Source of the DNA: a virus
DNA: 64,000 nucleotides
Direction: 5' to 3' (one strand)
IMG/VR virus record: IMGVR_UViG_3300030104_005504
Coordinates: 7,145 to 71,144 of that record
Positions 261-45,460 of this stretch are shown in pieces. The translations under genes and the position numbers were made by a program. Within the stretch, counting starts at the first letter, position 1, and every line of letters starts with the position of its first letter. The notes under the pieces are model-generated. The model was not told where the DNA came from, ran no database searches, and was given only the letters and a program-made list of their open reading frames with translations.

Positions 261-1001
261 TTATACCCCTATTACTTTACTTATATTTGCTGTTGCTACT
301 CCTTTAACTGTACCTATATTTGCTGTTGCCACCCCATTAACATTATTTCCATACCCCGAGGGTGCTAATGTGTAATCTAAATATGGATCCCTACTTGTAC
401 CAGTGTAGTTTTCATGATAATGAAAAAAACCATTTGTATCAGGAGACGTTCCAAGAGCTACATTTTTATAATCATGATCATACTCCATCATGCATATGTT
501 AACATTATTATTTAGCTGCATATCAGATTTAAGATCACTTGTTCCCGTAAAAGCGTTATAACCTGATGTCGACGACCCAGCATCAAAAACATTTGAATAA
601 TCTGTAGCAGGTCCGTCAAAACTACTACCAGCAGACCAATTATATAAATTATCAAAATCAGCGTTAGCTAGTGCTGTTCCCCCATCTCCTCCAAATATTG
701 AATTATCTGCTTTTACGCAAATCATTCGCGTACCAGCCTGTGAAGCTGTATACCTATAAAACTTAATATCAACATCAGCAACAGTGCCTGTTATACCCGA
801 CGTGTCAAAGTAAAAATAAGTTCTCAATACTCTCATCATCCCTGTTCCACCACCCCTTGCTGCAAACCTAATTGCATATGTGTAACCTTGAGGAAAAGAT
901 TCTATAGCAAAAGCTCCAGTGGTCGCATCTCTTACTGTTGCCCAGGTTGTACTAGCTGGACTTAATATGATTCCATCTCTTGAAGCATATAATACCGCCA
1001 T
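261..1001 (-). CDS. tail fibre/virion accessory protein
   Basis: G/T/D-rich beta-type protein with C-terminal GVATANI repeats; overlaps the upstream stop (TAATG); tail module. Confidence 0.6.
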   Translation of the reverse strand: MAVLYASRDGIILSPASTTWATVRDATTGAFAIESFPQGYTYAIRFAARGGGTGMMRVLRTYFYFDTSGITGTVADVDIKFYRYTASQAGTRMICVKADNSIFGGDGGTALANADFDNLYNWSAGSSFDGPATDYSNVFDAGSSTSGYNAFTGTSDLKSDMQLNNNVNICMMEYDHDYKNVALGTSPDTNGFFHYHENYTGTSRDPYLDYTLAPSGYGNNVNGVATANIGTVKGVATANISKVIGV

Positions 1002-1561
1002 TAGAATTCTTTTTTAGGTAAATAATAAGTATTAGAATTAAAATACATATTATCCACTGGATTAACACTAATAGCCTCGTACGTTGTACCATCTACAAAA
1101 AATACGTCATCTATATTCGTAAAATTATTCCACCAAGTTGCTTTACCTCCTGACTTCATTAATGTTGGTAAGGTTGTTTTAAAATTATCAATATTCTCAT
1201 CTCCAAAAGTATCATAAAATAAACCATCATAAGTAGACAATGAATCTTTAACATCATTCCAATCACCTTCAATTATAATAACATTTGATTTACCTTGTGC
1301 CCACGTTTTTAACCTTTCAATTATTTGTGGGTGGTTTTCTACTATAGTATGTGAGTTTATATTATTAGCTTGAATATAATCAGCTGATATACCCATGCCA
1401 AATCCTATCTCTAATATATCACCTCCGTTTTCACAAATATAATCCGCAGAGGCTTTCATGATATTATCTTCCCATGACATCATAACCTGTAATTCTTGAT
1501 CAGCATGTGTATAGTAGATTTTATCTTCTTCAAATATTAATGTTTCATCTATATATCCCAT
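1001..1561 (-). CDS. class I SAM methyltransferase, RMT2/guanidinoacetate-methyltransferase-like
   Basis: VMMSWE..IM, motif I ILEIGFGMGIS, HTIVENHP, IIEGDW, YDGLFYDTF; ATG at 1561 preferred over the ORF-track start at 1582. Confidence 0.85.
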   Translation of the reverse strand: MGYIDETLIFEEDKIYYTHADQELQVMMSWEDNIMKASADYICENGGDILEIGFGMGISADYIQANNINSHTIVENHPQIIERLKTWAQGKSNVIIIEGDWNDVKDSLSTYDGLFYDTFGDENIDNFKTTLPTLMKSGGKATWWNNFTNIDDVFFVDGTTYEAISVNPVDNMYFNSNTYYLPKKEF

Positions 1562-1563
1562 AA

Positions 1564-4500
1564 CTACGATTTTTCTACCCAAGTATTATCTGGATTAAAG
1601 TATATTTGACCATCTGTATCATCTAAGCAATACCCAATAACTCTAACAAAATCACCAGTACCACTTGGAGGTAATGGTGATATCCCGCCCGCTGTTGTGT
1701 GCACGTATAATGGATTACCAACATCACCCATATCAGAATCCATTGTTATTACACCTTTAATAAACATTCCATCAACATCAGGATCTGTTCCCAGTGCTAT
1801 AGCTAGCATACCCATAGCGTCTCTGTCTGCATCGTCACCTGTTGCTGCACCATCTGCATCTGCTTGTCCCCATTCTCCGTTTTCTTTTAGGTAGCAAAGA
1901 TCACCTTGAGTTGTACTACCTCCACCAAAATATAATACATCTCCTTGATGCTCAAAGTGAGTGGCACTTGTTGCGGTAAATTTACGATTAGCTTCTATAC
2001 CGGAAGTTGTAAACTTAGCCATTGTCACGGCGTCATCATTTAGTGTTATAGTACCGTTATCCGCATTTAATTCTATATCACCACTACAGTCAACGTCAAG
2101 ACTACCTGTAACCTCCATTGTTGGAGTTGAATCAAGATGGAACTGAAATCTTTCTGTGCCATTCTCTTTAAAGAATATATCTTCACCAGTGTGAGGGTCT
2201 AATATTATATCTCCATCAATATTAAATGTTAAATCTGCAGCTGACGCATTGTCGTCTACTGTTGACATAGTGGTGGCCCCATGAGTTGTTGTTGCTATAT
2301 AAAAGTAATCTCCTGTGTCAGCATGACTTCTACATAAAATATCAGGTGCCCCATCTATAACGGTAGTTCGTATACCATAAGTATCCTGGATATCACCCAC
2401 ACCATCTGTAAATACATTTAAATCAATACCTTTTCCAAATACATTACCAGCCGCGTTATCAGCATCGATATTTATATACATTCCCTTCATACTTACGTCG
2501 GCTGGAGCAACGTTTGTGGCGCTATCTTGGAGATCAATGGAGAGACCAGTCGTTACATTGTTGGCTCCACCGGTGGTTACCCCGCTTTTATCATAATCAA
2601 TATCAAGAATGGTTTTTTCGCTATCTCCAGTATTAGCATCATCAACGTCAATACGAACAATCTCACCATCGGTGTAAGAATTGCTATCAATATACAAAGC
2701 TCTTCCAGTAGTTAAAGGTCCAGCATCTATTTTTACAACGTCTGCTGTTGTATTTTCAGCATCAATACTTAATGCGATTTGATCAACATCATTATTATCT
2801 ATCTCCAACGCGGGTTGACCAGCAGTAGAGCCGTTTTGAACTTCAAAACCCCTACCATTAAAGGTAGTTTTCCCATCTACATTAAACGTTAAATGCGCGG
2901 CAGTTCCCGCGTTATCATGTGTTTCAAAAGTTGTCTCTGCATTTGACCCAACTGTTATAGAAAAATGATCATCACTGGTAACACCGCCTTCCTCATTCAT
3001 TACCAATCGACCATAATTACCATCTTCACCAATTACACTTAAAATAGGTTTTGCTACACCATCAATTTGCACGTTAAACATAATATCTGGGTTAGCGTCC
3101 GCAATCCAAGAAATGAATTGTCCATCTGGCTTAAAATTCATATGAGCTGTAGAACCACCACCAGCTTCAACTGTTGTAAATGTTGTTTCACCATCTTCTT
3201 TTGTATCTATAGTGAAATAATCCATGGCGTCAGCTGAGCTGCGAAGCTGTATGTCAGCACCTGCACCATCTTCACATTGTAGTTGTAGACCGTAGTTAAC
3301 ATCACTATCAGTTACAATCCCTCTAAATGCTACGTTTTGTGTTGTTCCACCAGTGCTAGAGGAGTCAACAGTAACGTTAACACCATACATATTCATGGTA
3401 CCAACATTGGTAGCAGCATCATTCATGCGAATATCCAAGCCTTGAGCAGTAACAGTGTTTAAGTTTTGAACCGCTCCAGATTTGTCGTAGTCTAAATACA
3501 ACATCGCGCTTTCACCTCCAATTCTATTTAAACTAGTTGTAGCGGTGTCGTTCCAGTCAATCTTTATACCTCCACCTGAGTCTGTTACAGATGCTAGGTT
3601 CATTACCATGCCATAGCCTGTCGTTAGGTCTTGACCATCTACATCTATTATATTGGCGGTAGTATTTTCAGCCTCTATGTCTAAGGCAATTTGATCAACA
3701 TCATTATTATCTATTTTTAGCGCCGCAGCTCCAGCAGCTGTACCAGTTTCTATTTCAACCCCTCCACCATCATTATCGGGAGATCTAAATTTAGTAAAAC
3801 CATCTACGTTGAATGTCAAGTCCGCAGCATGAGAGCTACCATTCACTGTAGCTATCTCGGTGGCACCATTTGTTGTTGTTGTCCAGGTAGAGTAGTCCGA
3901 GGAGTTAGCTGTACTATAATCTTGAAAAAATGCTCCACCATCTGTAATACTACTCTTAATTCCTAAGTTGGTTGTAGCGTCAGTTACCTGTAATGTCAAT
4001 CCTGTATTTTTATTACCTCCATTAGTATTAACAGAGTCAAGAGCTAATAACATACCAGTAAAATCAACAGTACTATTAGCATGGTTACTGCTAGCAGAAT
4101 CTGTAATATTTAAATTCAAACCTATTGTTCTATAGGTTTCACCATCTCCAGTGTTACCCGTCTTGGTAAAATCCCAGTCTCCAAATATTCCATCCAAATT
4201 ATTATAATTTGTTAATGAATTACTATTTGTAAGCTTGGTAAATGAAGCTGTTGTCAAGGCACCCCCATCAATACTAAGTATATCAGCTGTTGTGTTTGCC
4301 GCTGAAATATATAAAGCATTTTGATCTGTTTGCAACGCGTTTATATGTAAACCAGGTTGGCCGTGTCCAGATGCGCTGGTTATTTGCATTGGATGAGACG
4401 ATAACCACCTATCAGTAGCGGCTACCCAAGTTAACGATGCGTCATTTGAAGCATCAACAGCATCTTGAATTGTTATACCAGAACCATCTGCTGTTCCAGA

Positions 4501-5661
4501 TGTATCACTTGATGCGTTATAATTTAGTGTTATATTTTTATCTTCAACATTTAGGTTGGTAGTATTAATTGTTGTTGTTGTTCCACTAACAGTTAAATCA
4601 CTAGTTACTGTTAAATTACCACTTATCGTTGTTAATGATGCAGTACCGTTACCTATTATTACGTCTAATTCGTCTTCAGCGTCACCATCGCCAATCACTA
4701 TACCGGGTACCATTTCTCCATCGTGTGAAGCAACTTTAAATATCAATTTTCCACCTTCAGATCCATCGGTCGCTGTTTTTATTTGGCCTATTATTTCCGC
4801 AAAACTAGTTGCGTTATTACCATCATCATCAGCTTTAAAACGTATTAAACCTATTTCATCAGCATCCGCGCCGGTTGCAGTTTTTTGAAACATAAGTACA
4901 GGTGCCTCAGCATCAGTGTTATTGTTTACTAATGTAATGTCTGGTTTAGCCGAACCGCTTGCACCAACAGTAAATGACTCGCTAGAATAACTTAAAGCAC
5001 CACCACCAGCGCTAAATCCACCAGCTATTGTTGTCATTGAATTTGTACCGTAACCAAGACCTATATCAACAGTGTTATTTGTTGCGTGTCCAGTCGCTGT
5101 GAAAGCTTGTTGTGTTTGACTTGTTGAACCATCACTTGTTCTATTTAAAATCCGGGTTATACCAAATTCATCAGTGTCAACAGGTGAGCCTATAGCAACT
5201 TCGTACGAACCGTATTGTGTAGTAGATGGTGTACCATCATCCATCCCGTTCCAAGTAATAGTACCCAAGCTATCACTAGCCTGTCCATCATTACCACCCC
5301 TATTGTTAATAAAAGTAATATGACCATCGTTTGCATCGTTTGTATTTGATGTTATAGATAGCTGTGGTGCAGCAGCTGTTAAGTCCAAGTTACATATACT
5401 TGGATAATACTGGAATGAACCAGTGTCGTCTAATAGATTGTTTGATCCATCATGGAACACAACTGGATGATAACTACTATCATTATTGTCAGTTACAGTT
5501 ACTTTTCCAGTAGTAAGACCACTTGCGGTTCTTTTACTAACCTTACCATCAGAATCGGCAACAAGTATATTAGTTTCCGTAGTGGTGCTTAAGTCTTCAA
5601 AATAAACATCATTACGAAATCTAGATATAAAATCCCATATGTGGTGAGCTATCCATTTCAT
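1564..5661 (-). CDS. long tail fibre protein (1365 aa) with internal repeats
   Basis: GNLTVTSDLTVSGTTTTINTTNLNVEDKNITLN fibre motif; repeated IDNNDVDQIAL.I.AENTTA blocks; C-terminal W.QADAD...RVIGYC...YFNPDNTW domain. Confidence 0.75.
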   Translation of the reverse strand: MKWIAHHIWDFISRFRNDVYFEDLSTTTETNILVADSDGKVSKRTASGLTTGKVTVTDNNDSSYHPVVFHDGSNNLLDDTGSFQYYPSICNLDLTAAAPQLSITSNTNDANDGHITFINNRGGNDGQASDSLGTITWNGMDDGTPSTTQYGSYEVAIGSPVDTDEFGITRILNRTSDGSTSQTQQAFTATGHATNNTVDIGLGYGTNSMTTIAGGFSAGGGALSYSSESFTVGASGSAKPDITLVNNNTDAEAPVLMFQKTATGADADEIGLIRFKADDDGNNATSFAEIIGQIKTATDGSEGGKLIFKVASHDGEMVPGIVIGDGDAEDELDVIIGNGTASLTTISGNLTVTSDLTVSGTTTTINTTNLNVEDKNITLNYNASSDTSGTADGSGITIQDAVDASNDASLTWVAATDRWLSSHPMQITSASGHGQPGLHINALQTDQNALYISAANTTADILSIDGGALTTASFTKLTNSNSLTNYNNLDGIFGDWDFTKTGNTGDGETYRTIGLNLNITDSASSNHANSTVDFTGMLLALDSVNTNGGNKNTGLTLQVTDATTNLGIKSSITDGGAFFQDYSTANSSDYSTWTTTTNGATEIATVNGSSHAADLTFNVDGFTKFRSPDNDGGGVEIETGTAAGAAALKIDNNDVDQIALDIEAENTTANIIDVDGQDLTTGYGMVMNLASVTDSGGGIKIDWNDTATTSLNRIGGESAMLYLDYDKSGAVQNLNTVTAQGLDIRMNDAATNVGTMNMYGVNVTVDSSSTGGTTQNVAFRGIVTDSDVNYGLQLQCEDGAGADIQLRSSADAMDYFTIDTKEDGETTFTTVEAGGGSTAHMNFKPDGQFISWIADANPDIMFNVQIDGVAKPILSVIGEDGNYGRLVMNEEGGVTSDDHFSITVGSNAETTFETHDNAGTAAHLTFNVDGKTTFNGRGFEVQNGSTAGQPALEIDNNDVDQIALSIDAENTTADVVKIDAGPLTTGRALYIDSNSYTDGEIVRIDVDDANTGDSEKTILDIDYDKSGVTTGGANNVTTGLSIDLQDSATNVAPADVSMKGMYINIDADNAAGNVFGKGIDLNVFTDGVGDIQDTYGIRTTVIDGAPDILCRSHADTGDYFYIATTTHGATTMSTVDDNASAADLTFNIDGDIILDPHTGEDIFFKENGTERFQFHLDSTPTMEVTGSLDVDCSGDIELNADNGTITLNDDAVTMAKFTTSGIEANRKFTATSATHFEHQGDVLYFGGGSTTQGDLCYLKENGEWGQADADGAATGDDADRDAMGMLAIALGTDPDVDGMFIKGVITMDSDMGDVGNPLYVHTTAGGISPLPPSGTGDFVRVIGYCLDDTDGQIYFNPDNTWVEKS

Positions 5662-5662
5662 T

Positions 5663-5974
5663 TTAATCGTCTTTTCCTTTACTAAAATCTATGGGTTTTT
5701 GTCTACCCTTACTATCAGTGACAACACTCTTTGTTTTTAAAGCATCATAAGCTTGTTCTGATATATTTTTATTAATACCAGTATTCATAGTAAAAGTTAC
5801 TTGGTAAACATCTATAGGATCACTCGCACGTAATGCTTGTATTTTGTCTAAGTAAACTTTTACCTCAGCCATACTACTATGGTTCTCATAGTTATATCTT
5901 ATATGATCTATTCTATGATAACCTTCTTTTGCTTCTACTCCAGCGGAGCTTATGTATGGTAAAATTATCGCCAT
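5663..5974 (-). CDS. hypothetical protein, possible tail fibre assembly/chaperone
   Basis: 103 aa, directly upstream of the fibre; ISEQAYDALK motif. Confidence 0.5.
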   Translation of the reverse strand: MAIILPYISSAGVEAKEGYHRIDHIRYNYENHSSMAEVKVYLDKIQALRASDPIDVYQVTFTMNTGINKNISEQAYDALKTKSVVTDSKGRQKPIDFSKGKDD

Positions 5975-5995
5975 TACTTTATTTTTAATTAATTT

Positions 5996-6121
5996 TTAAT
6001 TTTCTTCAATAAACTTTTCTGCAACAGCTAATCTCTCATTATCATCATTGCAAGATATAAGATCTTTGTTGTAAATTGAAACAGCTATTTCATCTAACCT
6101 TTTTAATATATTTTTACTCAT
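5996..6121 (-). CDS. 41-aa hypothetical protein
   Basis: MSKNILKRLDEIAVSIYNKDL...EKFIEEN; ATGA overlap with the upstream micro-ORF. Confidence 0.6.
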   Translation of the reverse strand: MSKNILKRLDEIAVSIYNKDLISCNDDNERLAVAEKFIEEN

Positions 6122-6186
6122 TTTAATAATTTATAACTACATGCCGCAAGAACTATTGCCGCCACACATATAGGACATGGACACAT
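6118..6186 (-). CDS. 22-aa Cys-rich hydrophobic micropeptide
   Basis: MCPCPICVAAIVLAACSYKLLK; TAATG overlap upstream and ATGA overlap downstream. Confidence 0.55.
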   Translation of the reverse strand: MCPCPICVAAIVLAACSYKLLK

Positions 6187-6365
6187 TATATTTCAAATCC
6201 AAAGTTTAGCACCATCAATCTAAATCTAGGGCACGTTCCTTTGTTATTACAATTCCAACAAGGGCAAAACATTAATTCAAATACAGTTAACGTGCTTATT
6301 CTTATTGCTAATTCGTACTTATCTTTTTTATTACCTGATCTCCAGGAGTTTATCCAATTTATCAT
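6186..6365 (-). CDS. 59-aa hypothetical protein with CPCWNC...C
   Basis: MINWINSWRSGNKKDKYELAIRISTLTVFELMFCPCWNCNNKGTCPRFRLMVLNFGFEI; promoter-like motif just upstream. Confidence 0.7.
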   Translation of the reverse strand: MINWINSWRSGNKKDKYELAIRISTLTVFELMFCPCWNCNNKGTCPRFRLMVLNFGFEI

Positions 6366-6395
6366 ATTTAGTTCTTTATATTTATTATTACATGT

Positions 6396-9300
6396 TTATC
6401 GGTGAGCATAACATTTTTTACTCTTTCCATACTCACCCTTATTTCTACATCTAGTGCCAGAAGAAGTAGTACCAGTACATCTATATTCTTTTTTTCCGTC
6501 TCCATCTCTATCTTGACCTTCTTTAAATGAAGCATGATGAAAACACTTCCAACTCTTTTTATTAGTTTCAGTTGTCAAACCACATCTGCCACCACTTGAA
6601 TTAGAACCAGAACATCTAACTGTTTTTATACCTTCTTTTTTCTTTCTTTCTTCTTCAGCTTTTTCTTCTCTTTTCTTTTTATCCTCTTTTATAACCTTTC
6701 TAATCTCCTTGTCAACCTCTCTTTTTATCTTTTTTGATTCCTCTTTTTTCTCTTTAACTTTTGCTTTAGCTTTTTCTAGCTCTTCATCTTCAACACCTAA
6801 ACTCCACTTACTCCATCCAGATAGTAGCGCTACTTTTTGCCAAAGTTCATGATTACCTGTTAGTGCTTCTTCAACATTGTTAGCTTTATTTATTAACCTA
6901 GCAACTGGGGCATTTGTTAAAGCTTCAACCCAATTAGCCGCTATACTTAAGTTAGGGTTTTCAATTCTAAGACCTATCTCTTTGCTAACGCCCTTGTTCC
7001 ATTCTTCAGTTCTAATGGCTTGCATTATTTTTCTCATCTTAGTTCCTAATGGTGGAGAAAGATTTACTGCCTCTTGAGCTATATTCATATTTTCTCTTTT
7101 CCAACCCGGCTTTTCACGTTCTTCTTTCCATTTTACTAACACGTTTTTAAGAGTAGAAACCGCAGCGCCATAAATACCTGTACCTCTAAGTAAAGAATCT
7201 AAAGCTCCATTAGCAACTCTCTGTTCTAACGTTTCTTTTCTTTCCTCATCTTCATCCCAGCCGAATAGCATAAACATTAATCCAGTTTGAAGAGCACCAA
7301 AATATATATTTTGTATCAAGCCATAATAAGCTATACCTGATATATTAGCCATATCGCTTTGAAACTGTGTATAACCCGGTATTCTTCTTCTATTAACAAG
7401 ATCAGACATTTTCTTTTTCATCAATCTAGTCATCTGCATTGGTGTGTTTTGCCAAGCAAGTATTAATCTACCTAATGGACCAGCTTGTTGATTTGAGATT
7501 AAATCGGGTCTAGATGATTGTTGAGTTTCTTCAGCTACCTCTTGAAAATCCAACCAAGCTTGTTCTTTAGCTTTAGCTTCAGACATGCCTTGTTTTAAAT
7601 ATGTTTTTAGTCTATTTCTATAAAATGGAGCTCCACCTGCGGCTATAGCAAAACTATCCGCAACTTGAGTTGGTGTAAAACCTTTCTCTAATAACCAAGC
7701 TATTATAGCTTGAGGTTTATTTCTTCCATCATTAAAAGCTTTAGTTAATTCAGATGCCGATACATCTATCTGTAATCCAGCTCTTCTCTGTTTTAGCATG
7801 TCTGAATTAAATATGTAAACAAAGTCTTTAATAAACTGTGGCGCGTTAGCAAGAGCCGCTGCGGCAGCTACAGGATTGTTATCTGACATGTTTATAAAAT
7901 TAGCCATAGATATAGTCTGAAGTGTAGCTGATCTCATATTAAAGAACATTACAGCTCCAACTGAACCGTTAATCCAATCTAACAACCAGTTAACCTGAGA
8001 GTCTTTACCTGTTACCCTATTTTGACCAGTCTCCATTCTATATAACATCTTCTCAAGTTCATCTCTAAAACCTGTGCCATATATAGCTTCTATTTTATTT
8101 AAATTTTGTGGAGAAAATATTGTATTTTTATTATCTATCCATTTAGCAAAAAACTGTTTTCTACCTATTTCACGAACCGTGTTTGATAGATCACTAGCTA
8201 TAGATTCAACTGCCCAATAATCACTTGGTTTTATGTAACCCTCTGGAACTCTTGATATAATACCAAGCGCATCAGCAAAAGCTTTTAACTCAGCGTTATT
8301 ATTAATGTGATCTACTAATGTTTGTTTTTGACTATCAGATATTCCTGGTACTTCAAATCCAGACTTATCCCACAAATAAACTCTTATAGCGTTATCATTT
8401 GTAAAAGGTGTTCCCTTTACTTTCTTGTTTAAAATCTTTTTGATATTCTTAAACTCCTTCTTTAGAGCTTTATAGTCGTTAGACATGTTTTGTTTATAAG
8501 TGTTCCACTCTCTACTAGCTTCAGCAAAAGGATCCAATAGATGCTCTTTGAAAAATAAAGCATGGTTATTACCCTGCTCACCTCTACCTATAAAGGCATA
8601 TAACAAACCTTTAAAGTCTTCAGCTGATGGTGGGACAAAAAAGTTTTTAAATATATTTTTACCTTTACCAACACCTATCTTTCTAGCCTCTTGAGCTGAA
8701 AACATTTTACCAGCATTAATACCCTTTGTTTGTTCTAATATTTTATTAAAATCTAAAGCTCCCTTTTCACTAAACTTAATTCTAGCTTGAACAACCTTAG
8801 ATTTAATATCTAGCTGTTCTAGTACATCCTTAACAGCTTTTACGTTTGGTAAGGCATCATCTACGAAATACATATCATTATATCCCTCTGCAAACTTTTC
8901 TAACATCCAGTTGGCTTTAGATTCACCTCTACTATCTGCTAATCCTGTTATATTTTTAAATGGTATATTTACACCTTTAGATTTCAACCACTCGTGAATA
9001 GCAATATCAGCAGTTTGAGGTCTAGCTGTTAACACAAAAACATTATTAGGTCCATACTTTTTAATTTGATTTTTCATTTTCTGAAGCAATGGTCCGTCAA
9101 CTCCACCTCTTACATTTACAAAATCATCAAAGTTCATTTTGTAACCCTCAGCCATTAGCTCGGGACCTTTAATAGGCCAATCAGCTGAACTTATTTCTGT
9201 ATCTTGTCCAGTTATTGGATTTGTTGCTATAACAAAATTTTCTCCATCTATAATTAATGTCTCATCAAAATCAAACGTAGACATTCCTTTGCTTTTCTCA

Positions 9301-12300
9301 GATAATTTTGAATCAAACGTATAACCTCTTTTCTTTAGATCAGCCTCTATAGCATCGTTAATGTGCTTAACATCTAGTGGTGATTTTTTATGTTTAACTT
9401 TTGAGGCAGCTTTTATTTGCTCTGTAGCTTTTTGTTTTGTTATTTGTCCTGTTAGTATTCTAGTTATTAGTTCGTTTTGAATTGGAACAATGTGCTCCAT
9501 CTGAGCTTTTGTTAAACCCTTTACATTAACCCCAAAGTATTCTGTAACCGTCATGTTCTCACTGATTAAAAGATAATCATTAAGATTCACACCAGACTCT
9601 GTATACCTCACGATATTAGCTAAACCATCTGGCAGGTAATCTAATTTACCACTTAGTATTCTTGGGACAATTAATTCGTAAAATACATCTGGCATTTTAG
9701 AAGTGAAACCAGCATCAGCAACCATGTCATCATGAATAAGATCTAACGCCCATTGAGAATACGCCGCTCTAACAACCTTCATTGCATTCTTTATGTTGCC
9801 ATTTGGTTTTATAGCTTCAGCTAAAAGAATAGTCATTACCTCATTTTGAGGAAAACTATGTTCCTCTCTTACTTGTATGTAATTTATTTTATTATTCTTA
9901 TAAGGTATAACACTTAGTGGTGAAGATATTTTAACAACATGGTTCTGAGTGTTAGCACCCTCTTGAGCAAACAGTGCAAACACTGATGCAGAACCTTTAT
10001 TATCTTGGATATAATTCCTAATGTCTGTAAACATATCTTCTAACAAGTCTAGTCTACTTTTGTTATCATTTAAAAACTCCTTTTGACCAATCCACTTTCT
10101 TCCTTTTTTAAACTTAATTTTACCACCTTCAATTTTTATCTTATCTTTGTCTAGTTTTTCTCCTTTAGCGTAAGCATATCTTGTTAAAAGTTTTTTAATA
10201 TTCTCATCTGTTAAACCAGTTATCTCATAAAAAACATCTTTAACGCCAAATAAACTATTGCCATATCCACTTGCCATAGATGCTTGAAAGTACGGTATGT
10301 ACTGAGGATGTTTCTTTAAGAAACCACCTAGATCTTTTCTTATTTGTTTAGCTAGTTTAGAACTCTTTATGAAATCAACCAACTTTCTTTTCTTTGTTAT
10401 GTCCTTGTTTTTACCACCAAGATACTCTTCTACAATACGTATAACATCTAGAGATTTAACTCCAAGGTCTGACATTAATTTTCTAGTATTAAAATTAGCG
10501 TTCTTTTTAAACTCTAAAGATAAGTCTAAGTTAACCTTTTCGCTAAACATTACTTCTGATTTACCTTCACCAACCTTTTCAATAGTAGCCCTATCAATAC
10601 CTTGTTCGATAGCGTTCTTTCTTATTTGTTGGTTAGCTTCTAGTTGAGCAACTTGAGTTATAAAAGCTCTTAATGCACCATCTAATGATGTGCCTTTTTT
10701 ATTTGTTCCATCTGGATTAATACCAAATGCAGCTAAAAAATCTTTATTAGTTACATTGGGTTTCTTAACTTGAATAGGTAATCCAGCAGCAGTAGCTCCT
10801 TCTTTTACTTTAGCTCTACTACCTTTAATATAAAACTTATTTAAAAGACTAGGTGCAACACCAGTTGCTTTGCCACTTCTGTCGGTTCCTTCGGGTAGCA
10901 TGTCTATTAATTTACCTTTCTTAGATAGTTCAACTATTTTATTTCTAGCAGACTCTCTTTGTTTACCGTCTAGATCTTGGTTCTTTCTTATTCTATTAGC
11001 GTCAACACCAAAGTCCTTAGAAACAATATCTAATACTTTATTTAATGGACCGTTTGTAATTAATTTCTTAACACCCTTATATGTTAATTTAGATAAAGGT
11101 ACATTAGCTTCTTTAACAGTGTTTTCTATTTCAGAAACTTTTTTACTATCTAAACCTAATTCTTTATTAACTATTTTACCTTCAGCTTGTTTAGCACTAA
11201 CACCACCACCCGCTACTATATCTGTGTCTGCAATATCTATATCACCTTCTGGTGTAGATATAGAAACCGTTTCAGGGCCTTGACCCTTTGCTTCATCTAA
11301 TATTTGATTATATCTTGTTGGTAGAATTTTATTAACATAAGCACCAAATGGAACACCTTCTGCTGGATTCCAAGTTCTACCTAGATCAGCTAGTTCCATA
11401 AAGAAACCTGATTGAAATTCCTCAAGACTAACTCTTTTTGTGCCTGACATAACACCACCTTCATAAGCTTTTTTAGCCAACTTATTAGCGATAGCCATAT
11501 TGTTTTCAATTAGTTTATTTCTAAACCTATCTGACACAGCTTTATAAAACTTCTTGTCGTTTTCATAATACACTTCATCTAAACCTATTCCTTTGATCTT
11601 AGCGTTTTCTTTTATTTCATTATGAATCTTTTCGTTTATAGCAGCTATTTCTAAATTACTTTTAGATATATTTTCAGAGAGTTTAGTTTTAAACTCACTT
11701 TCGTTTCCATTAAACATTTCATCTATGAACTGAGCGTATTGAGATAACGTACTCTTTTTCATAGACTTTATATCTTTTATTGTAACTGTACCCGCCTTAA
11801 TCTTCTTAGCTAGGTTTGTTATAAAAGCCACGGCATCTGTTTCACCCTCAAAGTTGAAATCAAAATCTGAATTAGTTTCTTTAGCAACACCTTTGCTAAA
11901 TAAATAACCCATTAAACCTCCTAGTCCACTATTCTTTTTAGCTTCAAAATCTATTTTACCTTCAACAACCATTTCCATATATACGTTTAAAACTTCTTCA
12001 GGACTCTTACCATCTGTTTCAGCTAGTAGTAGCGCATATAGATTAGGATTTTTAGATTTAACATGTTGAAGTATTTGATTTGATATCTGAACAAAAGCCT
12101 CTGGATTTTTACCAAAAACCTCAGCAAATATAGTGTGACCAAGCTCATGTGTTCTTGTTTCAAGACGATCGTCTTTAGCCATGTTTTCCACAACCTGAAA
12201 TGGTATTCTTTCTCCATCTCTAGTAGGAACATTAGCACCATGACTACCATTTTCTATTTTACGTATAAGATTATCTTTTTCTTTTTGATCGATATTCATC

Positions 12301-15224
12301 TTATTTATTTCCTCAACAGCTTGTTCAACGGTTTGGTAGTTTCTTAATGACTTACCGAGTTTTGTTTTACCTCTTTTATTTTTGTAGTCGTTATTTATAT
12401 ATTGAGTGTTATATATTAATCTACCTTCCTCTTGCACTTGAGCATCACTAGGATTACTATTACCACCCTCTACTAGGTTGTTGTATGCTTCTTGAATTAT
12501 CTTTTCTCTTTTGTCAGTATCTTCTTTCGAATCACTAGCTAGAAAGCCATTGTATTTGTTACCAAATACCTTAGGATCTTTCATCATATCTATTTTAACT
12601 TGATTCTTATCAAATTTATTTTGAAGATTTTCTAATGCTTTCCTTTTTGTTTCAGCATCTAAAGATGAATCGTTGGTTATTTTCTTAGCTTGATTTCTTA
12701 TAACCTCTTGAGCTGAAACCGTCTTAAGAAATTCCTGAACAAATTTAGGAGACATGTTCTTCATTTGGTTTTCAACATTCTCCAGTATTTGATTGTTCTC
12801 TTTTTCTAATGCTTCAACTTGTTCATTTAAGATCTTAGCTGTCTCTGGTTTAATGTACCGCTTTGTACCATCTAGTTGTGTTTTGAGATCTGTTATTTTA
12901 TCTAGATTATCTCTATACTTTTGTTTGACTTCAGAGTTAGAAAATGTATTCATCATAACACCTTTAACAAAAGGTGTACCGCCGAATATAGTACCAAACA
13001 TACCACCGCTAAAAAGAGCATGATCTAGATTCTCTCCTATAGGTCTACCAGTTAAAACGTTTTGAGAAACCGTTGTTAAACCCTCTGATGACATTTCTAA
13101 TAGAGGATCTATTAATAATTGACGCTTACCATTTTGTATAAAATGCTGTTTAATACCATCTAAACCAGCTTGCATATTTTTACTACTAGTTCCGTACATA
13201 GCTGCCCAAGATCTTTTCATTACTGGTAGAGTCAAATATGTATCAAATATAAACTCCGCTGTACCATATCCAGCGCTTGTTAATGTTTTCTTTAATAGTG
13301 ATGATTCATTACCTGGATTTTCAGCATCTTTCCTTAACATTTCCGTCCAATTATCTCCAGCACTAGATAAACCTAAAGATGGTATACCAATACCTGGTAT
13401 AGCTATAGTAGCAAATATAGGTATTTGATTACCTATTTCTTGAGCAAGAAATCTACCGAAGTTACCCTTTTTAAAAGCGTTTTCAAACTTAACATCTGGT
13501 TGAAACTCGTTACGAGCAATTTGAGTTGCCCTGTCATAGCTAAGCATGGTTTTATCTAAGGTTTTATTATCAATACCCATTAAACCTCCAATAAGTTTAT
13601 TACCACCATAACCACCTTTAACTACTATTCTAGAAAACCCAGAAGTTATATTAAAAGCGAACTTTTCTAAGTCATTATAGTTTTTTTGTATAAGATTATT
13701 TTTATAATCACTATCTTGTAGATTTTCTATTTTATAAGAATTATCCTTAATCCACTCATCAAAGTTTTCAATAGAAGCTTTTGTTACGATATTTGAAACC
13801 TCATACTGCTCCCATTTATTTTTAGGAACCTTTCTTCCATCGTCTAATGTAACGTACTCTTCTCCCTCTCCTATAGCAAATCTAGCTGTTGGATCGTTAA
13901 AAAACTCAACCATGTCATTAACAACTTTTGTATGAGGATTTGTTTTTATAGCATCTATTTTTGATTTAAAGTTTAACTCGTAAGCCGCTAGTTCTTTTAT
14001 ATCTTTTTCATTTTTTAATAAAGAACCTATTTTAACTCTATTAATAATCCCCTCTCCTCCAAAAGTAAAAGTTTGACCCCCTCTAGTTACAGTTCTTCTT
14101 CTCGTACCCTCCACTTCATCGGAGTTCATTATATCTATAATATTTTTTTCTTGAGCTTCTTGTGTGTCTTTGATTATTAAGTTTTCTCTAGTAACAGCCT
14201 CTATTTGTTCTCTAGTTGGTTCTTTATAACCCTCCCTAATTAATTGTTGTTTTGCTTCCTCTAACTCTTCTTTATAAGGTTCAATAATAGTCTCGTATGG
14301 CGTCACTGTAAATTTGCCGGTATGATATTTTGTTTCTGTTCTAGGTTTAAATAAATCTTCGTTTATTTGAAAACCTTGCTCATCGATAGAAGCATATTTA
14401 TTTTTTATATCTCGCTTTTGTTGTTTGGTTAAATCCATGTTTAACGCCTCAACTTCACTAACAAGCTTACCCTGTTTTATTCTAGAGTTTAATTTATCTT
14501 CATCTGAAAGGGTGTTCTCTAGAAAGTTAATTAAATTATTACTAGAATTATTTCTTCTACGATCTACTTCTTCTTCTTTAAAAGCCAGCTTGTTTAATCC
14601 AAAATCTAAAATAGTATTTTCTCCAGATTCTTTATGTGTTATTTTTACTTGATTAGAGTTGTATCTATCCCCAGTTTCTTCATAAGAATAAATATCACCA
14701 AACATACTTTCTAATTGAACTATAGCTCCATCTTTGTCATTCTTAAAAAATTCATTAGTTCTACTGTTAGTTGTTTTTATATCTTCACCAATTATAAAAC
14801 TATATAAACCTTTATTTTTTTCTGATAAATCATATTGAAATTCATTTTCTTTTTTTCTATTTTCAAGAGTTTGTTTTTCTTTTCTATCTTTCTCAATTTG
14901 ATCGCTAGTTAAAACAGTGTAGTTACCAAAAATATCTTTTTGACTCTCAACGATATTACCTTGGGTGTCTCGTCTTTGTTGGTTTACCTGCTTCATAACA
15001 TCTTCGTTATACCATGATGGTAATTCCGAAGAAGTATTTCCCAAGTTGGATTCCGTATTTTCTTGTTGATTGTTTTGGGGCTGACTCGCCCCTTGCGACT
15101 TTCCCAACTCATCAGATTCTAGAGTTGCTGTCAGACCTTGTTTTTCTAATTGTTTTAAGAATTCCTGTTCTTTCTCTGGTGGAACCGATATAGGTCTACC
15201 ATCAGATAATATATAGTTTATCAT
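6396..15224 (-). CDS. giant virion cargo/ejection polyprotein (2942 aa): hydrophobic region, zincin HExxH, sigma70 region-2-like, HAD phosphatase, C-terminal CCCH zinc fingers
   Basis: THELGH at 12135-12149; LIENNMAIANKLAKKAY...WNPAEGVPFGAYV at ~11335-11530; FDFDETL/VLTAR/FVDDA at ~8780-9290; two C-x9-C...C-x2-H units at the C-terminus; next to ejection-type genes. Confidence 0.75.
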   Translation of the reverse strand: MINYILSDGRPISVPPEKEQEFLKQLEKQGLTATLESDELGKSQGASQPQNNQQENTESNLGNTSSELPSWYNEDVMKQVNQQRRDTQGNIVESQKDIFGNYTVLTSDQIEKDRKEKQTLENRKKENEFQYDLSEKNKGLYSFIIGEDIKTTNSRTNEFFKNDKDGAIVQLESMFGDIYSYEETGDRYNSNQVKITHKESGENTILDFGLNKLAFKEEEVDRRRNNSSNNLINFLENTLSDEDKLNSRIKQGKLVSEVEALNMDLTKQQKRDIKNKYASIDEQGFQINEDLFKPRTETKYHTGKFTVTPYETIIEPYKEELEEAKQQLIREGYKEPTREQIEAVTRENLIIKDTQEAQEKNIIDIMNSDEVEGTRRRTVTRGGQTFTFGGEGIINRVKIGSLLKNEKDIKELAAYELNFKSKIDAIKTNPHTKVVNDMVEFFNDPTARFAIGEGEEYVTLDDGRKVPKNKWEQYEVSNIVTKASIENFDEWIKDNSYKIENLQDSDYKNNLIQKNYNDLEKFAFNITSGFSRIVVKGGYGGNKLIGGLMGIDNKTLDKTMLSYDRATQIARNEFQPDVKFENAFKKGNFGRFLAQEIGNQIPIFATIAIPGIGIPSLGLSSAGDNWTEMLRKDAENPGNESSLLKKTLTSAGYGTAEFIFDTYLTLPVMKRSWAAMYGTSSKNMQAGLDGIKQHFIQNGKRQLLIDPLLEMSSEGLTTVSQNVLTGRPIGENLDHALFSGGMFGTIFGGTPFVKGVMMNTFSNSEVKQKYRDNLDKITDLKTQLDGTKRYIKPETAKILNEQVEALEKENNQILENVENQMKNMSPKFVQEFLKTVSAQEVIRNQAKKITNDSSLDAETKRKALENLQNKFDKNQVKIDMMKDPKVFGNKYNGFLASDSKEDTDKREKIIQEAYNNLVEGGNSNPSDAQVQEEGRLIYNTQYINNDYKNKRGKTKLGKSLRNYQTVEQAVEEINKMNIDQKEKDNLIRKIENGSHGANVPTRDGERIPFQVVENMAKDDRLETRTHELGHTIFAEVFGKNPEAFVQISNQILQHVKSKNPNLYALLLAETDGKSPEEVLNVYMEMVVEGKIDFEAKKNSGLGGLMGYLFSKGVAKETNSDFDFNFEGETDAVAFITNLAKKIKAGTVTIKDIKSMKKSTLSQYAQFIDEMFNGNESEFKTKLSENISKSNLEIAAINEKIHNEIKENAKIKGIGLDEVYYENDKKFYKAVSDRFRNKLIENNMAIANKLAKKAYEGGVMSGTKRVSLEEFQSGFFMELADLGRTWNPAEGVPFGAYVNKILPTRYNQILDEAKGQGPETVSISTPEGDIDIADTDIVAGGGVSAKQAEGKIVNKELGLDSKKVSEIENTVKEANVPLSKLTYKGVKKLITNGPLNKVLDIVSKDFGVDANRIRKNQDLDGKQRESARNKIVELSKKGKLIDMLPEGTDRSGKATGVAPSLLNKFYIKGSRAKVKEGATAAGLPIQVKKPNVTNKDFLAAFGINPDGTNKKGTSLDGALRAFITQVAQLEANQQIRKNAIEQGIDRATIEKVGEGKSEVMFSEKVNLDLSLEFKKNANFNTRKLMSDLGVKSLDVIRIVEEYLGGKNKDITKKRKLVDFIKSSKLAKQIRKDLGGFLKKHPQYIPYFQASMASGYGNSLFGVKDVFYEITGLTDENIKKLLTRYAYAKGEKLDKDKIKIEGGKIKFKKGRKWIGQKEFLNDNKSRLDLLEDMFTDIRNYIQDNKGSASVFALFAQEGANTQNHVVKISSPLSVIPYKNNKINYIQVREEHSFPQNEVMTILLAEAIKPNGNIKNAMKVVRAAYSQWALDLIHDDMVADAGFTSKMPDVFYELIVPRILSGKLDYLPDGLANIVRYTESGVNLNDYLLISENMTVTEYFGVNVKGLTKAQMEHIVPIQNELITRILTGQITKQKATEQIKAASKVKHKKSPLDVKHINDAIEADLKKRGYTFDSKLSEKSKGMSTFDFDETLIIDGENFVIATNPITGQDTEISSADWPIKGPELMAEGYKMNFDDFVNVRGGVDGPLLQKMKNQIKKYGPNNVFVLTARPQTADIAIHEWLKSKGVNIPFKNITGLADSRGESKANWMLEKFAEGYNDMYFVDDALPNVKAVKDVLEQLDIKSKVVQARIKFSEKGALDFNKILEQTKGINAGKMFSAQEARKIGVGKGKNIFKNFFVPPSAEDFKGLLYAFIGRGEQGNNHALFFKEHLLDPFAEASREWNTYKQNMSNDYKALKKEFKNIKKILNKKVKGTPFTNDNAIRVYLWDKSGFEVPGISDSQKQTLVDHINNNAELKAFADALGIISRVPEGYIKPSDYWAVESIASDLSNTVREIGRKQFFAKWIDNKNTIFSPQNLNKIEAIYGTGFRDELEKMLYRMETGQNRVTGKDSQVNWLLDWINGSVGAVMFFNMRSATLQTISMANFINMSDNNPVAAAAALANAPQFIKDFVYIFNSDMLKQRRAGLQIDVSASELTKAFNDGRNKPQAIIAWLLEKGFTPTQVADSFAIAAGGAPFYRNRLKTYLKQGMSEAKAKEQAWLDFQEVAEETQQSSRPDLISNQQAGPLGRLILAWQNTPMQMTRLMKKKMSDLVNRRRIPGYTQFQSDMANISGIAYYGLIQNIYFGALQTGLMFMLFGWDEDEERKETLEQRVANGALDSLLRGTGIYGAAVSTLKNVLVKWKEEREKPGWKRENMNIAQEAVNLSPPLGTKMRKIMQAIRTEEWNKGVSKEIGLRIENPNLSIAANWVEALTNAPVARLINKANNVEEALTGNHELWQKVALLSGWSKWSLGVEDEELEKAKAKVKEKKEESKKIKREVDKEIRKVIKEDKKKREEKAEEERKKKEGIKTVRCSGSNSSGGRCGLTTETNKKSWKCFHHASFKEGQDRDGDGKKEYRCTGTTSSGTRCRNKGEYGKSKKCYAHR

Positions 15225-20507: not shown

Positions 20508-23500
20508 TTAATCATAATTTGTTGCTGCTTCTGAATCATCACCATCATTTTGAACCGTCAACTCAGATACTTCTGCTGGATACTCACAACCATACTGTAT
20601 AGCCAAACCATCCACATCGTCCGATGAACCAGGTATAATACATCCATCACAAGGTGAATTAGCTAGTTCTACGTAGTTTGTTGCGGTCGGGTCCATACAA
20701 CCATAGTTGAACGCAATACATGGACTATCTGGATTGTTAGCACTTGTTTCATTTGTATTTGCTAAGGGATCATAATTGTAAGCTGTTTCATCTGTGCAAC
20801 CATACACAATGCTTTCACACGAGCCATCATCCTCGTTGGCTAACGGATTAAAGTTAAAAGCAGTAATATCCATGCAACCAGGAACTACAGCGACACATGA
20901 ACCATCATCATCCGTTGCATCTGGATTGTAGTTTAACGCTGTTGGATCTGTACAACCAGGTACATATGTTACGCAGTTACATGAACCATCATCAACAGTG
21001 GCTAATGGATTATAATTACTACACAAATATTCACCCATAGAATTCATACTACTGTCGGTACAACCCTCTATTATACCATCACCACTACAATCTTCAATTG
21101 CAGGATCACAATCTACACCACCTTCACAACATACGCAGGCTGAGCAGTCTATACACTCCACCGTAGCATTAGGATCATAGTTGACGTCGTTTTCATCCAT
21201 GCAACCATATAGAAGTTCGTTTCCACTATCCCCATCGTATTCACATGGTGCGCAAAAGTTAGCTGGCGCACTAGAATAATCAGCTATAGCTTGAATTTGA
21301 TCTTCAGTTAAACTACTACAGTCTAGTGTTGCATCACTATTATAGTTTAGAGCAGTTGGGTCCATACATCCCCAACAGTCATAATTGCAAACACCTTGTA
21401 TTGTTGCTAAAGAATTATAATTACATGCTTGGGGTTCTACGCATCCAACCTCATTTTCCTGTATTACTACTAGTTCGCCACAGCAATCTGGCACTCCATC
21501 ACCATCAGCGTCCGCACACGATGTTGTTGCTGCTGGATTATAGAATTCATAACTATTATCCATACAACCAACTTGTTCTTCTCCTTCTTCGAAGCAATCC
21601 TCGCACTCAACTAATGGTCCACACTCTTCTTCACCATCATCATTAACTATAATATTTTGACAAAATAAACAACTCCAAGAATAAACCTCAGTCCATGTTA
21701 CTACTCCACCAGACGTTAGTTCACCAAAGTCGGTTAAGTACCCATCTTGCGTTGCGTTTGCATTATAGTTTGTTGCGTTTTCATCTTGGCAACCAATAAC
21801 ATAACTATCACACGAACCGTCTTCAATACTAGCTATTGGATTATAGTTTGGAGCAGCTGGATCTGTACATCCTTGAACATTATATAAGCAGCTTCCATCA
21901 TCAATATCTGCTGGTAGCATTTCATTAAAATTGTCCGCCATTGGATCAGTACATCCTACAATATATCCAGTTTCATCACATTCAGCACCAGTACAATCAG
22001 TAACTATAACTTGAGCAGCCATACCTATTCCTTGAACTAAAAATTGACTAGGATCTGTTACAATACCACTATTACTACCATTTATTTTATTAAACCATTT
22101 CCCTTCTTTTTTTATAAACTCATTAACTTTACCTGTCTCTAAGTCTGTTTTAGCTAAAGAAACCCACCATCCATCTTTTTGATTTAAATTATAGTATTCT
22201 TTATCATTTAAAGCTACTTCAGTAGTTTCGTAACCAACGGGTATAACTTCTTGAACATAATTCATTTTTCCAGTGGTAACATCTTGAACTGTGCCTTGAA
22301 ACTCATTGATTCGAGCTTGAGAGCCTTCGTAATTTATTGTTTTAAAAGATTTAACAGTACTAGGTAGGTCATTAAATGAAACAGTTAACTCGGAATCGAA
22401 AACTTGCCCATAAAATAGGTTTCTAGATACATCTGAATTATCAGAGTATTTACTTCTATAGTGTTCGTATATACTATTTCTATATGTAGTATAATACTTT
22501 CCAGCAATAGATAAACCTTGAGATGGTACAAATGACTTAAAACTAACCCAACCCTTAGCTGCTTCGTTAAAAGAAACTGTTGTGTCTAAGTTTTGAAAAG
22601 CTTTTCTATGTTTTAATGACAAGTTGTATTCTCCAGAAACTTTATCAAAAGATCCCAGTAAACTTTCTGTTGCCCGCATATTATCTCTAAACCAAGTCTT
22701 CATGCCAACATCAGATATTGGTGTTAATCCATCTCTTGATAATCTTAATACAGCACCTCTTTGTTTGTCTGTGAAATACATTCTATATTGATCTGCTGTT
22801 AGAGATTCTGGATTTTTAGATATTCCATAATCTCCAACAAAAGGAATAGCTGTACCCAACACCTTGTCTGTTGCTGTTAACTGTGGATTACCATCAGCAT
22901 TAAACAAAGCATCTTTACTTGATAAAATCTTTAACACCTTGTCTTCAGTAAATACCACAATATCTGTATCTCTAGTTTTCATAGCCTGAATAGAGCCATA
23001 CGATGGATTTAATTCTTTAGTTATTTTCTCCGCCATGTTAAATTCATTCAGATTATTAATCTGTGAAGTAGAATTATATAAGCCAGAATATATTAAACCA
23101 CTACTAATATTCTCTTCTTTATAACCAGAAAATGTTGTTGACACTTTAACACCATTATCTAATTGAGGGGCATTATAATCGTCTCTAATTCTGTCTGATT
23201 CAACTCCATTACCAAACGAATAACAGTTAAACCAGGGTAGTTTAACAGGTTTATTCCAAGTTTCTATTTCCACTCCATAATAACCTGTTATACGTTTAAA
23301 GTGAAAATTAAAACGAACTGACGTAGAGCTTCCAGGAGGAGTTAATTGTATACCAGAGTACTGGATAGCGGAAATACTACCTATAGGTGTTACACCAGGA
23401 GTTATTATAGAAACTGGATAAAATGAATCTGGTGAAGCTATCGGGTTTTCAGCATCCCACTCTATAAAACTAAAAACATAAGTTGGTGTTATATTAGTAA

Positions 23501-41643: not shown

Positions 41644-41656
41644 AATTTAAGTTTTA

Positions 41657-42247: not shown

Positions 42248-42255
42248 TTTATTTA

Positions 42256-43112: not shown

Positions 43113-43115
43113 TTA

Positions 43116-45407: not shown

Positions 45408-45460
45408 AATGTATTATATTTTATTAAATTAAATTTGGTTTTATATGGTATTATAAAATA

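Follow-up and report, generated by a model that had tools for sequence, protein, structure and literature searches.

We analysed a stretch of viral DNA of 64,000 nucleotides (hereafter the window), which covers bases 7145-71144 of the 71,144-bp IMG/VR virus record IMGVR_UViG_3300030104_005504, rated complete by CheckV. An earlier reading of this DNA made from its letters alone (the sequence-only reading) had proposed that positions 10551-11672 encode a sigma factor-like domain, injected into the host as part of a virion protein in place of a virion RNA polymerase. This region falls within P0001, an open reading frame (ORF) of 2942 amino acids (aa). Residues ~1183-1558 of P0001 form one conserved three-part module that consists of a sigma domain 2-like part (hereafter sigma-2), an acidic flexible linker and a basic domain, d2. 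We describe this module, the gene and the genome that carry it, and what it may do when the phage genes are first read.

The peptide quoted in the sequence-only reading (RNKLIENN...GAYVNKIL) is present at residues 1235-1301 of P0001 (window 11322-11522), inside 10551-11672. A search with residues 1150-1650 among 5.8 billion proteins led to the identification of 100 homologues, and the corresponding segments of 21 relatives were aligned (alignment A1). AlphaFold2 run on A1 (residues 1221-1478) gave a model in three parts with a mean predicted local distance difference test score (pLDDT) of 65.2: a four-helix domain (model residues 5-96, block means 63-82), a stretch with pLDDT <50 and no secondary structure (model residues 95-129), and a second helical part. 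The model was compared with 48,161 PDB chains by VIA-align, which is independent of Foldseek. The top 22 rows were all sigma domain 2, with Z from 10.1 to 6.8, and the best was 8b3z_A (Z 10.1, root mean square deviation (rmsd) 2.7 over 80 residues). Named sigma factors account for 21 of these 22 rows; the remaining one, 3les_A, covers the chain range that is also aligned in the rows of Taq sigmaA. No clearly unrelated fold came before rank 23. In helical bundles a Z under ~13 may reflect a common arrangement or chance, and the weight of this comparison comes from the unbroken run of one family in the top rows, not from the Z value.

The Foldseek comparison proposed in the sequence-only reading pointed to a single family: all 48 listed rows were sigma chains, isolated sigma domains or models of sigma with RNA polymerase, but their E values were weak (0.086-1.3) and none reached E<=0.001 against the PDB. 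Among them, 8b3z_C (the SigE N-terminal domain) had a probability of 0.99, a TM score of 0.74 and an rmsd of 2.3 over 78 columns. In a language-model look-up (Atlas) of the 96-aa piece, 25 of 30 matches lay in Sigma70_r2 clusters (top score 0.95). The sigma-2 part is under purifying selection, with dN/dS of 0.15, 0.26 and 0.26 against the related loci L003, L004 and L005, and the aromatic residue at the place of sigma70 Y430 (Y76 of A1) is nearly invariant in the 21 relatives. Single-sequence searches of the stretch returned nothing from PHROGs, and phmmer against the PDB gave only two haemagglutinin rows at E>1. We accept the sigma-2 fold because of the structure-level tests, the sequence tests being suggestive. 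Taken together, the model and the comparisons made with it indicate that residues ~1225-1316 very probably adopt a genuine, very divergent sigma domain-2 fold, and the likeness to sigma region 2 that had been noticed by eye is more than chance.

The VSIS...DIAD sequence that follows had been read as resembling sigma region 3. It turned out to belong to a disordered acidic linker, the second part of the model described above; this segment is acidic in all 21 relatives, with a mean net charge of -12.5 per 100 aa. For d2 we used a separate alignment (A3) of 32 rows from the window and the locus references. AlphaFold2 on A3 gave one compact alpha/beta domain of ~210 residues with a pLDDT of 85.8 and a predicted template modelling score of 0.84; the mean isoelectric point (pI) of d2 is 9.7. 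No sigma was found among the rows of Foldseek against the PDB (nothing at E<=0.001), of VIA against the 48,161 chains (best Z 4.8, 0 chains at Z>=5) or of the d2 profile against the PDB. The sole match in BFVD was a family member from an uncultured virus, and the Atlas look-up gave no usable match. An assignment to sigma-3, or to region 4.2 as the look of 'DFGVDANRIRKNQ' had suggested, was rejected for d2 on account of the single compact domain and the lack of sigma rows.

The 100 homologues are giant proteins of 1770-4246 aa from marine metagenomes, across which the best-conserved stretches of P0001 are residues ~1350-1550 and ~2000-2850. All 100 contain d2. A hidden Markov model (HMM) of the sigma-2 part (type A) matched directly upstream of d2 in 42 of them; the other 58 have a different segment there, in which the same sigma signature can be seen by eye (...FDPxKNDSLFGWLTG..., ...STEFSTWINS...). 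A second sequence type (type B, SLFGWLTG) is missed by the type-A HMM even at E<=10. In a library of 1.84 billion proteins, d2 was found in 497 representative clusters (50% identity) at E<=0.001. The best 150 of these 497 comprised 91 proteins of at least 2000 aa, 33 of 1000-1999 aa and 26 shorter ones. For 128 representatives with enough upstream sequence, two HMMs assigned 62 to type A and 23 to type B only, with 43 matching neither, which places a sigma-2-like segment directly before d2 in 85 of the 128. The region-2.2/2.3-type signature [FYW][DN]P-x(2,12)-[GSTAN][WYF][ILVM] occurred before d2 in 57 of the 128, compared with 5 of 1580 control windows. Related loci were retrieved with an alignment of 15 type-B homologues (A4) as query, which gave 490 relatives in IMG/VR, whereas the single protein P0029 gave nothing. 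Identity to P0001 is mosaic: the locus L004 has 49% in sigma-2 and 91% in d2, L005 has 79% and 39%, and residues 1561-1970 reach merely 24-25% in all three pairs compared (L003, L004 and L005). The two domains thus appear to have been exchanged independently between relatives, a pattern that points to domain-wise recombination inside the giant gene.

The module is bracketed by two short motifs, KLSE upstream and MFSE downstream, which coincide with the borders 10551-11672 of the sequence-only reading. Motifs of the form x-[FLMYW]-S-[KREQ] are enriched 140-200 residues before the d2 block: in 99 homologues, 71 fell into three 20-residue bins, against ~8 expected per bin. At the end of the block, a simple regular expression for [FLMY]S[KREQNS] matched in 73 of 98 homologues. 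Similar motifs flank a HAD-type piece of P0001, at 1974 and 2151. The protein also has a zincin-type HELGH motif, whose H-E-x-x-H is invariant in A4; this piece had no Pfam family and no significant PDB sequence match, and the best PDB match of the HAD-type piece, the PNKP phosphatase domain, was not significant (E 0.94). The bracketing motifs and the zincin motif would fit a polyprotein that processes itself by cleavage.

P0001 lies in the arm of late genes on the minus strand (~0-48.3 kb), after the genes for the large terminase (TerL), the portal and the capsid-type protein. The order at its end is a 2708-aa protein, then P0001, then a 1365-aa protein. The giant, multi-domain build of P0001 and its place in the structural module are traits of podovirus ejection ('polyvalent') proteins. 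In Cellulophaga phage phi40:1, whose module shows the same order of genes, the last of the large ones encodes gp101 (1691 aa), annotated as structural from tandem mass spectrometry (MS/MS). One homologue of P0001, P0059, starts with an SLT transglycosylase domain, and 16 of the 100 homologues have Zeta_toxin/AAA_33 kinase domains, a type of domain carried by many injected polyvalent proteins. By synteny, P0001 is most likely an internal virion protein, of the ejection or 'polyvalent' kind, of a podovirus of marine Flavobacteriia. In 50,697 GenBank phage records, tblastn matched neither the whole of P0001 nor its C-terminal 793 residues.

By its portal sequence, the phage is kin to the podoviruses of Flavobacteriaceae (elemoviruses, Callevirus and Maribacter phage Panino). 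The nearest GenBank phages by this protein infect Flavobacterium (68), Cellulophaga (15), Tenacibaculum (2) and Maribacter (1), with 1 uncultured, all below 60% identity. A crAss-like affiliation was rejected, as the portal kinship points to the flavobacterial podoviruses. The sign of the guanine-cytosine (GC) skew flips near 48 kb, where the plus-strand arm begins, and runs of G at 48392-48473 (minus-strand reading GGGGGGTGGGGGCCTGGGGGGAAGGGGGG) lie exactly at the switch between the arms. Outside the window, a 621-aa ORF (record bases 633-2498, plus strand), by eye ribonucleotide reductase-like, extends the plus-strand arm across the record ends. The C-terminal third of the 2708-aa protein consists of many Cys-rich repeats of the C-T-D-P-x-A-x-N-Y-N-x-x-A type, and the protein looks like a fibre or adhesin. 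The C-terminus of P0001 itself (6399-6600, minus strand) has two Cys-rich repeats (R-C-x7-8-R-C ... C-x-H-H/R); the same end is the Pfam family DUF5763 in the homologue P0033 (26.5 bits), and DUF5763 is found in 9 of the 100 homologues. The features of the window are collected in Table 1.

Table 1. Features of the module, of its gene and of the surrounding genome, in window positions.
Feature	Position	Strand	Basis or remark
Giant ORF P0001	6396..15224	-	ORF list and translation; close to the downstream end of the arm of late structural genes
KLSE, residues 1181-1184, upstream bracketing motif	11673..11684	-	Regular expression on P0001 and positional enrichment; putative processing site
Sigma domain-2-like four-helix domain, residues ~1225-1316	11277..11552	-	AlphaFold2, VIA, Foldseek, Atlas look-up, dN/dS
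Acidic, probably disordered linker, residues 1317-1349	11178..11276	-	pLDDT <50, charge; contains VSIS...DIAD
Basic conserved domain d2, residues 1350-1558, no known fold	10551..11177	-	AlphaFold2, Foldseek, VIA, pI, conservation
MFSE, residues 1559-1562, downstream bracketing motif	10539..10550	-	End of G-x-G-K-S-x-x-M-F-S-[KRE]; positional peak, alignment A3
HELGH zincin-type motif, residues 1026-1030	12135..12149	-	Motif only
FDFDETL, HAD-type DxDxT motif, residues 1984-1990	9255..9275	-	Motif only
Second giant protein, 2708 aa, fibre-like	20508-28634	-	Late arm
Second structural protein	28639-29508	-	Late arm
Capsid-type 'virion structural protein'	31449-32909	-	Late arm
Portal	34202-36595	-	Late arm, upstream of P0001
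Large terminase (TerL)	36592-38826	-	Late arm, upstream of P0001
TACGA-N9-GATAAT sites (8)	48522, 48643, 49084, 49353, 50427, 51740, 52881, 53681 (span to 53700)	+	Exact matches
Free-standing phage sigma P0103, 251 aa	56271..57026	+	PF04542 24.8 bits; PF04545 32.5 bits

The sequence-only reading had found no catalytic motif of an RNA polymerase (DFDID/NADFDGD) in the window, and a six-frame search of the complete record (71,144 bp) agrees with this: DF[DE][IVL]D, NADFDGD, DxDGD and T7-type polymerase motifs were all missing. A search with PF00623 gave no match. A search with PF00940 gave none either, but its control matched nowhere too, which makes it uninformative. The 7144 bases outside the window hold the 621-aa ORF and small ORFs and no RNA polymerase. 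The record is thus without a recognisable RNA polymerase, elsewhere in the genome as well as in P0001. The separate sigma gene that had been noted at 56271 does exist and is matched by the families of both sigma domain 2 and sigma domain 4 (P0103, Table 1); it is the only match of a genome-wide search with PF04542, which does not pick up the embedded domain. Homologues of this free sigma were found in 10 of 10 relatives tested (G001-G005 and G010-G014) at 51-69% identity. A search of marine data gave at least 8000 proteins at E<=0.001, the best 120 of which are 81-94% identical. The genome G003 has two copies of the free sigma gene (3695-4444 and 64909-65658), perhaps in a terminal repeat. When compared profile to profile, the embedded domain and P0103 align in the same domain-2 register with weak likeness (P 0.0039, probability 8.6%), so that the embedded domain is not a recent copy of the free sigma.

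The early promoter motif TACGA-N9-GATAAT, on which the sequence-only reading had built its transcription scheme, proved real. The window has 8 exact matches against 1.76 expected, 0 of 100 shuffles reach 8, there are none elsewhere in the record, and the motif is conserved in relatives. The extended consensus covers ~36 nucleotides (nt), CACAAAnTAAA-TACGA-N8-A-GATAAT-ATA (48487-53703, plus strand). At three of the eight sites (50427, 51740 and 52881), the ATG of an ORF of 40-76 codons starts 6 nt after GATAAT, which suggests that these early messages may be leaderless and GATAAT a -10 element. TTG-N17-21-TAnnTTTG, modelled on the promoter consensus of Bacteroidota (TTG / TAnnTTTG), had 0 plus-strand matches beyond 48 kb. 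The free sigma gene is downstream of all eight sites. The spacers of some relatives (...ACACTATAGG...) resemble T7-class promoters; this candidate was dropped, as the eight sites here do not have the likeness in common and a single-subunit polymerase was not found. Inspection by eye of the minus-strand intergenic gaps for late promoters found no shared motif. One metatranscriptome run contained 0.05 of the sampled words, as contigs, which cannot show transcription starts, and no conclusion was drawn from it.

For a comparison across relatives we took those that carry the module and have a completeness of at least 90%, 13 in all. Eleven of the 13 have 3-11 exact copies of the motif (G001 6, G002 11, G003 7, G004 7, G005 5, G010 6, G011 6, G012 10, G013 7, G016 3 and G017 5), and the remaining two have 2 (G014) and 1 (G018). 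In the eleven, the copies are on a single strand except in G001, where one of the six is on the plus strand. Where positions were compared (G001, G004, G005 and G011-G013), the free sigma gene shares its strand with the majority of the motif copies and lies further downstream than most or all of these. Outside this set, no exact copy was found in G006-G008 (55-60% complete) or G009 (72%), whose records are probably without the early arm, and G015, G019 and G020 (82-87% complete) have 1, 4 and 0 exact copies. G018 (the record of locus L082) has seven one-mismatch sites, TACG[TCG]-N9-GATAAT, on one strand at 41037-46589, five of them TACGT, in addition to its one exact TACGA; its d2 is diverged (75.5 bits, '...GTATNLP...'), and it is a possible single case of motif and d2 changing together. 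Three outgroups with a related portal were also compared: phi40:1 and Panino were matched by neither A1 nor A3, and MW202828 was not matched by A3. None of the three has an exact motif copy or a Sigma70_r2 gene, and their one-mismatch counts are like those of the controls. Module, motif and free sigma therefore occur as one package. This is compatible with the proposed cascade, but it cannot separate the embedded domain, the free sigma and the host sigma as reader of the motif. In the nearest GenBank relative by portal (L164, MW202828.1, 50.5%), a gene of 3859 aa annotated as 'reticulocyte binding/rhoptry protein' stands at the same place (record 741-12320); d2 finds no match in this gene, and the promoter motif none in the record. 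The sequences suggest that the slot of the giant protein may be old and the sigma-like module a later acquisition.

Sigma domain 2 docks on the clamp helices of the RNA polymerase beta-prime subunit and opens the -10 element. Residues 1-100 of A1 were folded together with residues 220-360 of Flavobacterium johnsoniae beta-prime, a prediction that the sequence-only reading had called for. The score was 0.60 against 0.01 for the best control; the runs gave 0.56, 0.60 and 0.66, with at least 71% of contacts in agreement and a partner pLDDT of at least 75. The mark used was passed by 58 of 80 solved complexes and, among 110 mismatched pairs, by 2. Just 7 of those 80 solved complexes scored 0.60 or lower, as did both mismatches that passed. 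By the verdict of the method the prediction gives weak support, and it may reflect mere likeness because complexes of sigma-2 with beta-prime are among those solved.

The reading that we place first, and hold tentatively, is that the module is a sigma-like initiation or recruitment factor delivered with the virion. The giant protein would enter the cell together with the phage DNA, and its zincin would possibly release the module at the F/L-S-[EKR] motifs on either side. Through the sigma-2-like domain the module would then bind the host core RNA polymerase and either act as a minimal initiation factor without sigma-4 or recruit the polymerase for the first phage transcripts, from which the free phage sigma would be made and take over later. 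We infer the packaging, the cleavage, the binding to RNA polymerase and the reading of promoters. A pre-made factor would be needed because the record has no phage RNA polymerase, its eight early promoters are not host-like, and the free sigma gene lies behind them. The two-sigma cascade of the sequence-only reading is retained in part: the sigma-2 fold, the missing polymerase, the real motif and the downstream sigma gene are consistent with it, but the embedded domain is not a whole sigma and does not co-vary with the motif. The order of the cascade is at least possible, since the free sigma gene is downstream of the promoters here and has homologues in all the relatives tested.

Several observations weigh against this reading. 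At the level of sequence, Pfam at E<=10 recognised no Sigma70 family in P0001 or in the 374-aa stretch. Only 2 of the 21 aligned relatives matched Sigma70_r2, below threshold (best E 0.0051). The A1 family profile against the PDB (E<=10) gave 11 matches, of which 5 were sigma factors over region 2 at sub-threshold E values of 0.1-0.73; the two best rows (moesin and uS10) align on the low-complexity linker, and the alignments to the sigma chains keep the correct region-2 register. The residues at the places of sigma70 W433 and W434 are K and I, as read from the alignments. The embedded domain is not a whole sigma either, as it has no region 3 and no sigma-4 was found: a search of the genome with PF04545 (Sigma70_r4) at E<=1 matched only P0103, and hhalign of d2 against regions 3-4 of the free sigma gave a probability of 0.09%. 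The sigma-2-like domain is not a free dissociable subunit but is encoded within the 2942-aa ORF, and the only 2 short proteins that match the module come from contigs of 759 and 3170 bp, which gives no hint that it exists as a separate protein. Conservation is higher in the free sigma (51-69% identity) than in the module region, which is 24-35% identical over most loci. As for packaging, gp101 of phi40:1 matches P0001 over 61 residues (28%, E 1e-4) in the N-terminal half, far from the module. The same GenBank phage records, searched by tblastn with the module at E<=1, gave no homologue, so that no proteomic datum touches the module directly. As for the promoters, the CACAAAnTAAA block is conserved ~19 bp upstream of GATAAT, a -35-like position that suits a sigma with a sigma-4 domain, whether of the host or the free phage sigma. 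Finally, G011-G014 have the type-B segment with an unchanged promoter motif. The co-variation of domain and motif that the sequence-only reading had proposed to look for was thus not observed; genomes of type A and of type B share one motif, and nothing ties it specifically to the embedded domain.

These points bear in part on the alternative that the host holoenzyme or the free phage sigma reads the early promoters and that the embedded domain goes back to a captured sigma gene, of which it is a diverged helical remnant that now serves, for example, in handling DNA or single-stranded DNA during ejection or in packing inside the capsid. We consider this somewhat unlikely. The -35-like block with its 19-bp spacing does suit a complete sigma, the motif is always accompanied by the free sigma and stays the same across divergent sigma-2 types, Pfam does not recognise the embedded domain, and a VIA Z below ~13 can be a common arrangement of helical bundles. 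A mere bundle does not sit well, however, with a ranking of 48,161 chains that has sigma-2 in each of its first 22 places and unrelated folds from rank 23 onwards, nor with the independent sequence-feature look-up, which also gives Sigma70_r2, nor with the purifying selection on this part. The free sigma gene, moreover, is located behind the promoters that the free sigma would first have to read, and no promoter of the host type, in the consensus that we assume, was found on the early strand.

Another possibility is that the module docks on the polymerase without acting as a sigma. It would anchor the injected protein or its enzymatic parts (the zincin and HAD-type pieces, and the kinase in relatives) or occupy the sigma site of a few polymerases, with the consequence that the polymerase is modified, blocked or positioned and that promoters are not read by the module. 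In keeping with this, the sole sigma part present is the domain that docks on the core, the beta-prime score bears on binding alone, and the module is always fused to other domains of the effector type; the constancy of the motif across sigma-2 sequence types and the independent swapping of sigma-2 and d2 (49%/91% in L004, 79%/39% in L005) would also be expected. Judging from the copy numbers of internal virion proteins, however, a few injected molecules could start a few transcripts and could not shut off the polymerases of the cell, which is why the delivered factor is ranked before docking or hijack. The near-invariant aromatic residue at the Y430 place fits DNA opening better than docking, and no enzymatic fold was found for d2. 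We judge docking without sigma function to be unlikely. That the giant protein is not packaged and has a late role in the producing cell, for instance as a late-transcription or assembly factor, would agree with its gene being in the late arm and its protein being made late but is highly improbable in view of the synteny with a virion protein verified by MS/MS, the SLT domain in one homologue, and a size, multi-domain build and position that match podovirus ejection proteins such as T7 gp16 and N4 gp50.

If the module is a delivered initiation or recruitment factor, it differs from the systems that it resembles. The embedded domain is similar to domain 2 of Sigma70 (PF04542), as in the rows 8b3z SigE, 5h6x RpoS, 8hkc sigma32, 8x6g SigB, 1sig sigma70 and 6pmj sigma28 (Z 10.1-8.6, rmsd 1.9-3.4 over 75-83 residues), with the order of regions 2.1-2.3 and the signature 'x-[FYW]-[DN]-P ... 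aromatic' retained. Unlike these, it is below every Pfam threshold, is sited at residue ~1225 of a 2942-aa protein, comes without a detected sigma-3 or sigma-4, and does not keep the tryptophan pair of region 2.3. It also resembles T4 gp55 (7d7d_F, VIA Z 5.9), a minimal late sigma that has only a sigma-2-like domain and acts without sigma-4. T4 gp55, however, is small and free, is synthesised in the infected cell and depends on gp33 and the sliding clamp, whereas the embedded domain is joined to a new basic one within a probable virion protein. A very divergent sigma-like promoter-recognition protein is also found in phage AR9, gp226 (7s01_A, VIA Z 6.5); it serves a phage-encoded multisubunit polymerase, of which there is none in this genome. 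Virion RNA polymerases are carried in giant injected proteins by N4 (vRNAP) and by the crAss-like Cellulophaga phage phi14:2 (gp66). P0001 would likewise be a giant protein of a podovirus structural module that supplies early transcription capacity on entry, but it has no polymerase domain or catalytic motif, only a domain for docking on the polymerase, which would leave synthesis to the enzyme of the host. Polyvalent proteins (Iyer et al. 2017, PMC5512222) and T4 Alt are large, multi-domain, delivered with the DNA and act on host machinery, including RNA polymerase in the case of Alt. The module is not among the LPD-type domains of Pfam (it has no Pfam matches), and 'sigma' occurs 0 times in the main text of PMC5512222. 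At the level of main texts, we found no publication in which a virion or polyvalent protein is described as having a sigma-like domain.

The first reading of phage genes is a basic step of infection, for which two solutions are well described: the use of the host holoenzyme and the injection of a complete RNA polymerase, as in N4, crAss-like and phiKZ-like phages. A giant protein that is probably part of the virion and has a sigma-2 domain within it would stand between the two, as only the part for specificity or docking is brought in. A further, rather unlikely form of this would be a third mode of starting, in which a two-domain factor is injected and cut from the ejection protein, its sigma-2 part opening GATAAT while d2 replaces sigma-3 and sigma-4 and reads TACGA and CACAAAnTAAA. 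Were it true, a widespread lineage of podoviruses of marine Flavobacteriia would use neither a virion RNA polymerase nor the plain host holoenzyme, and the outcome would be short early transcripts, some of them leaderless, including the message for the complete sigma of the phage. The module family comprises 497 clusters, goes with a conserved promoter that is not host-like and with a second, free sigma, and belongs to a phage group that is abundant in marine metagenomes. Even if the module is not a sigma, it would be of interest as a new conserved effector that docks on RNA polymerase, together with an orphan fold of 210 residues.

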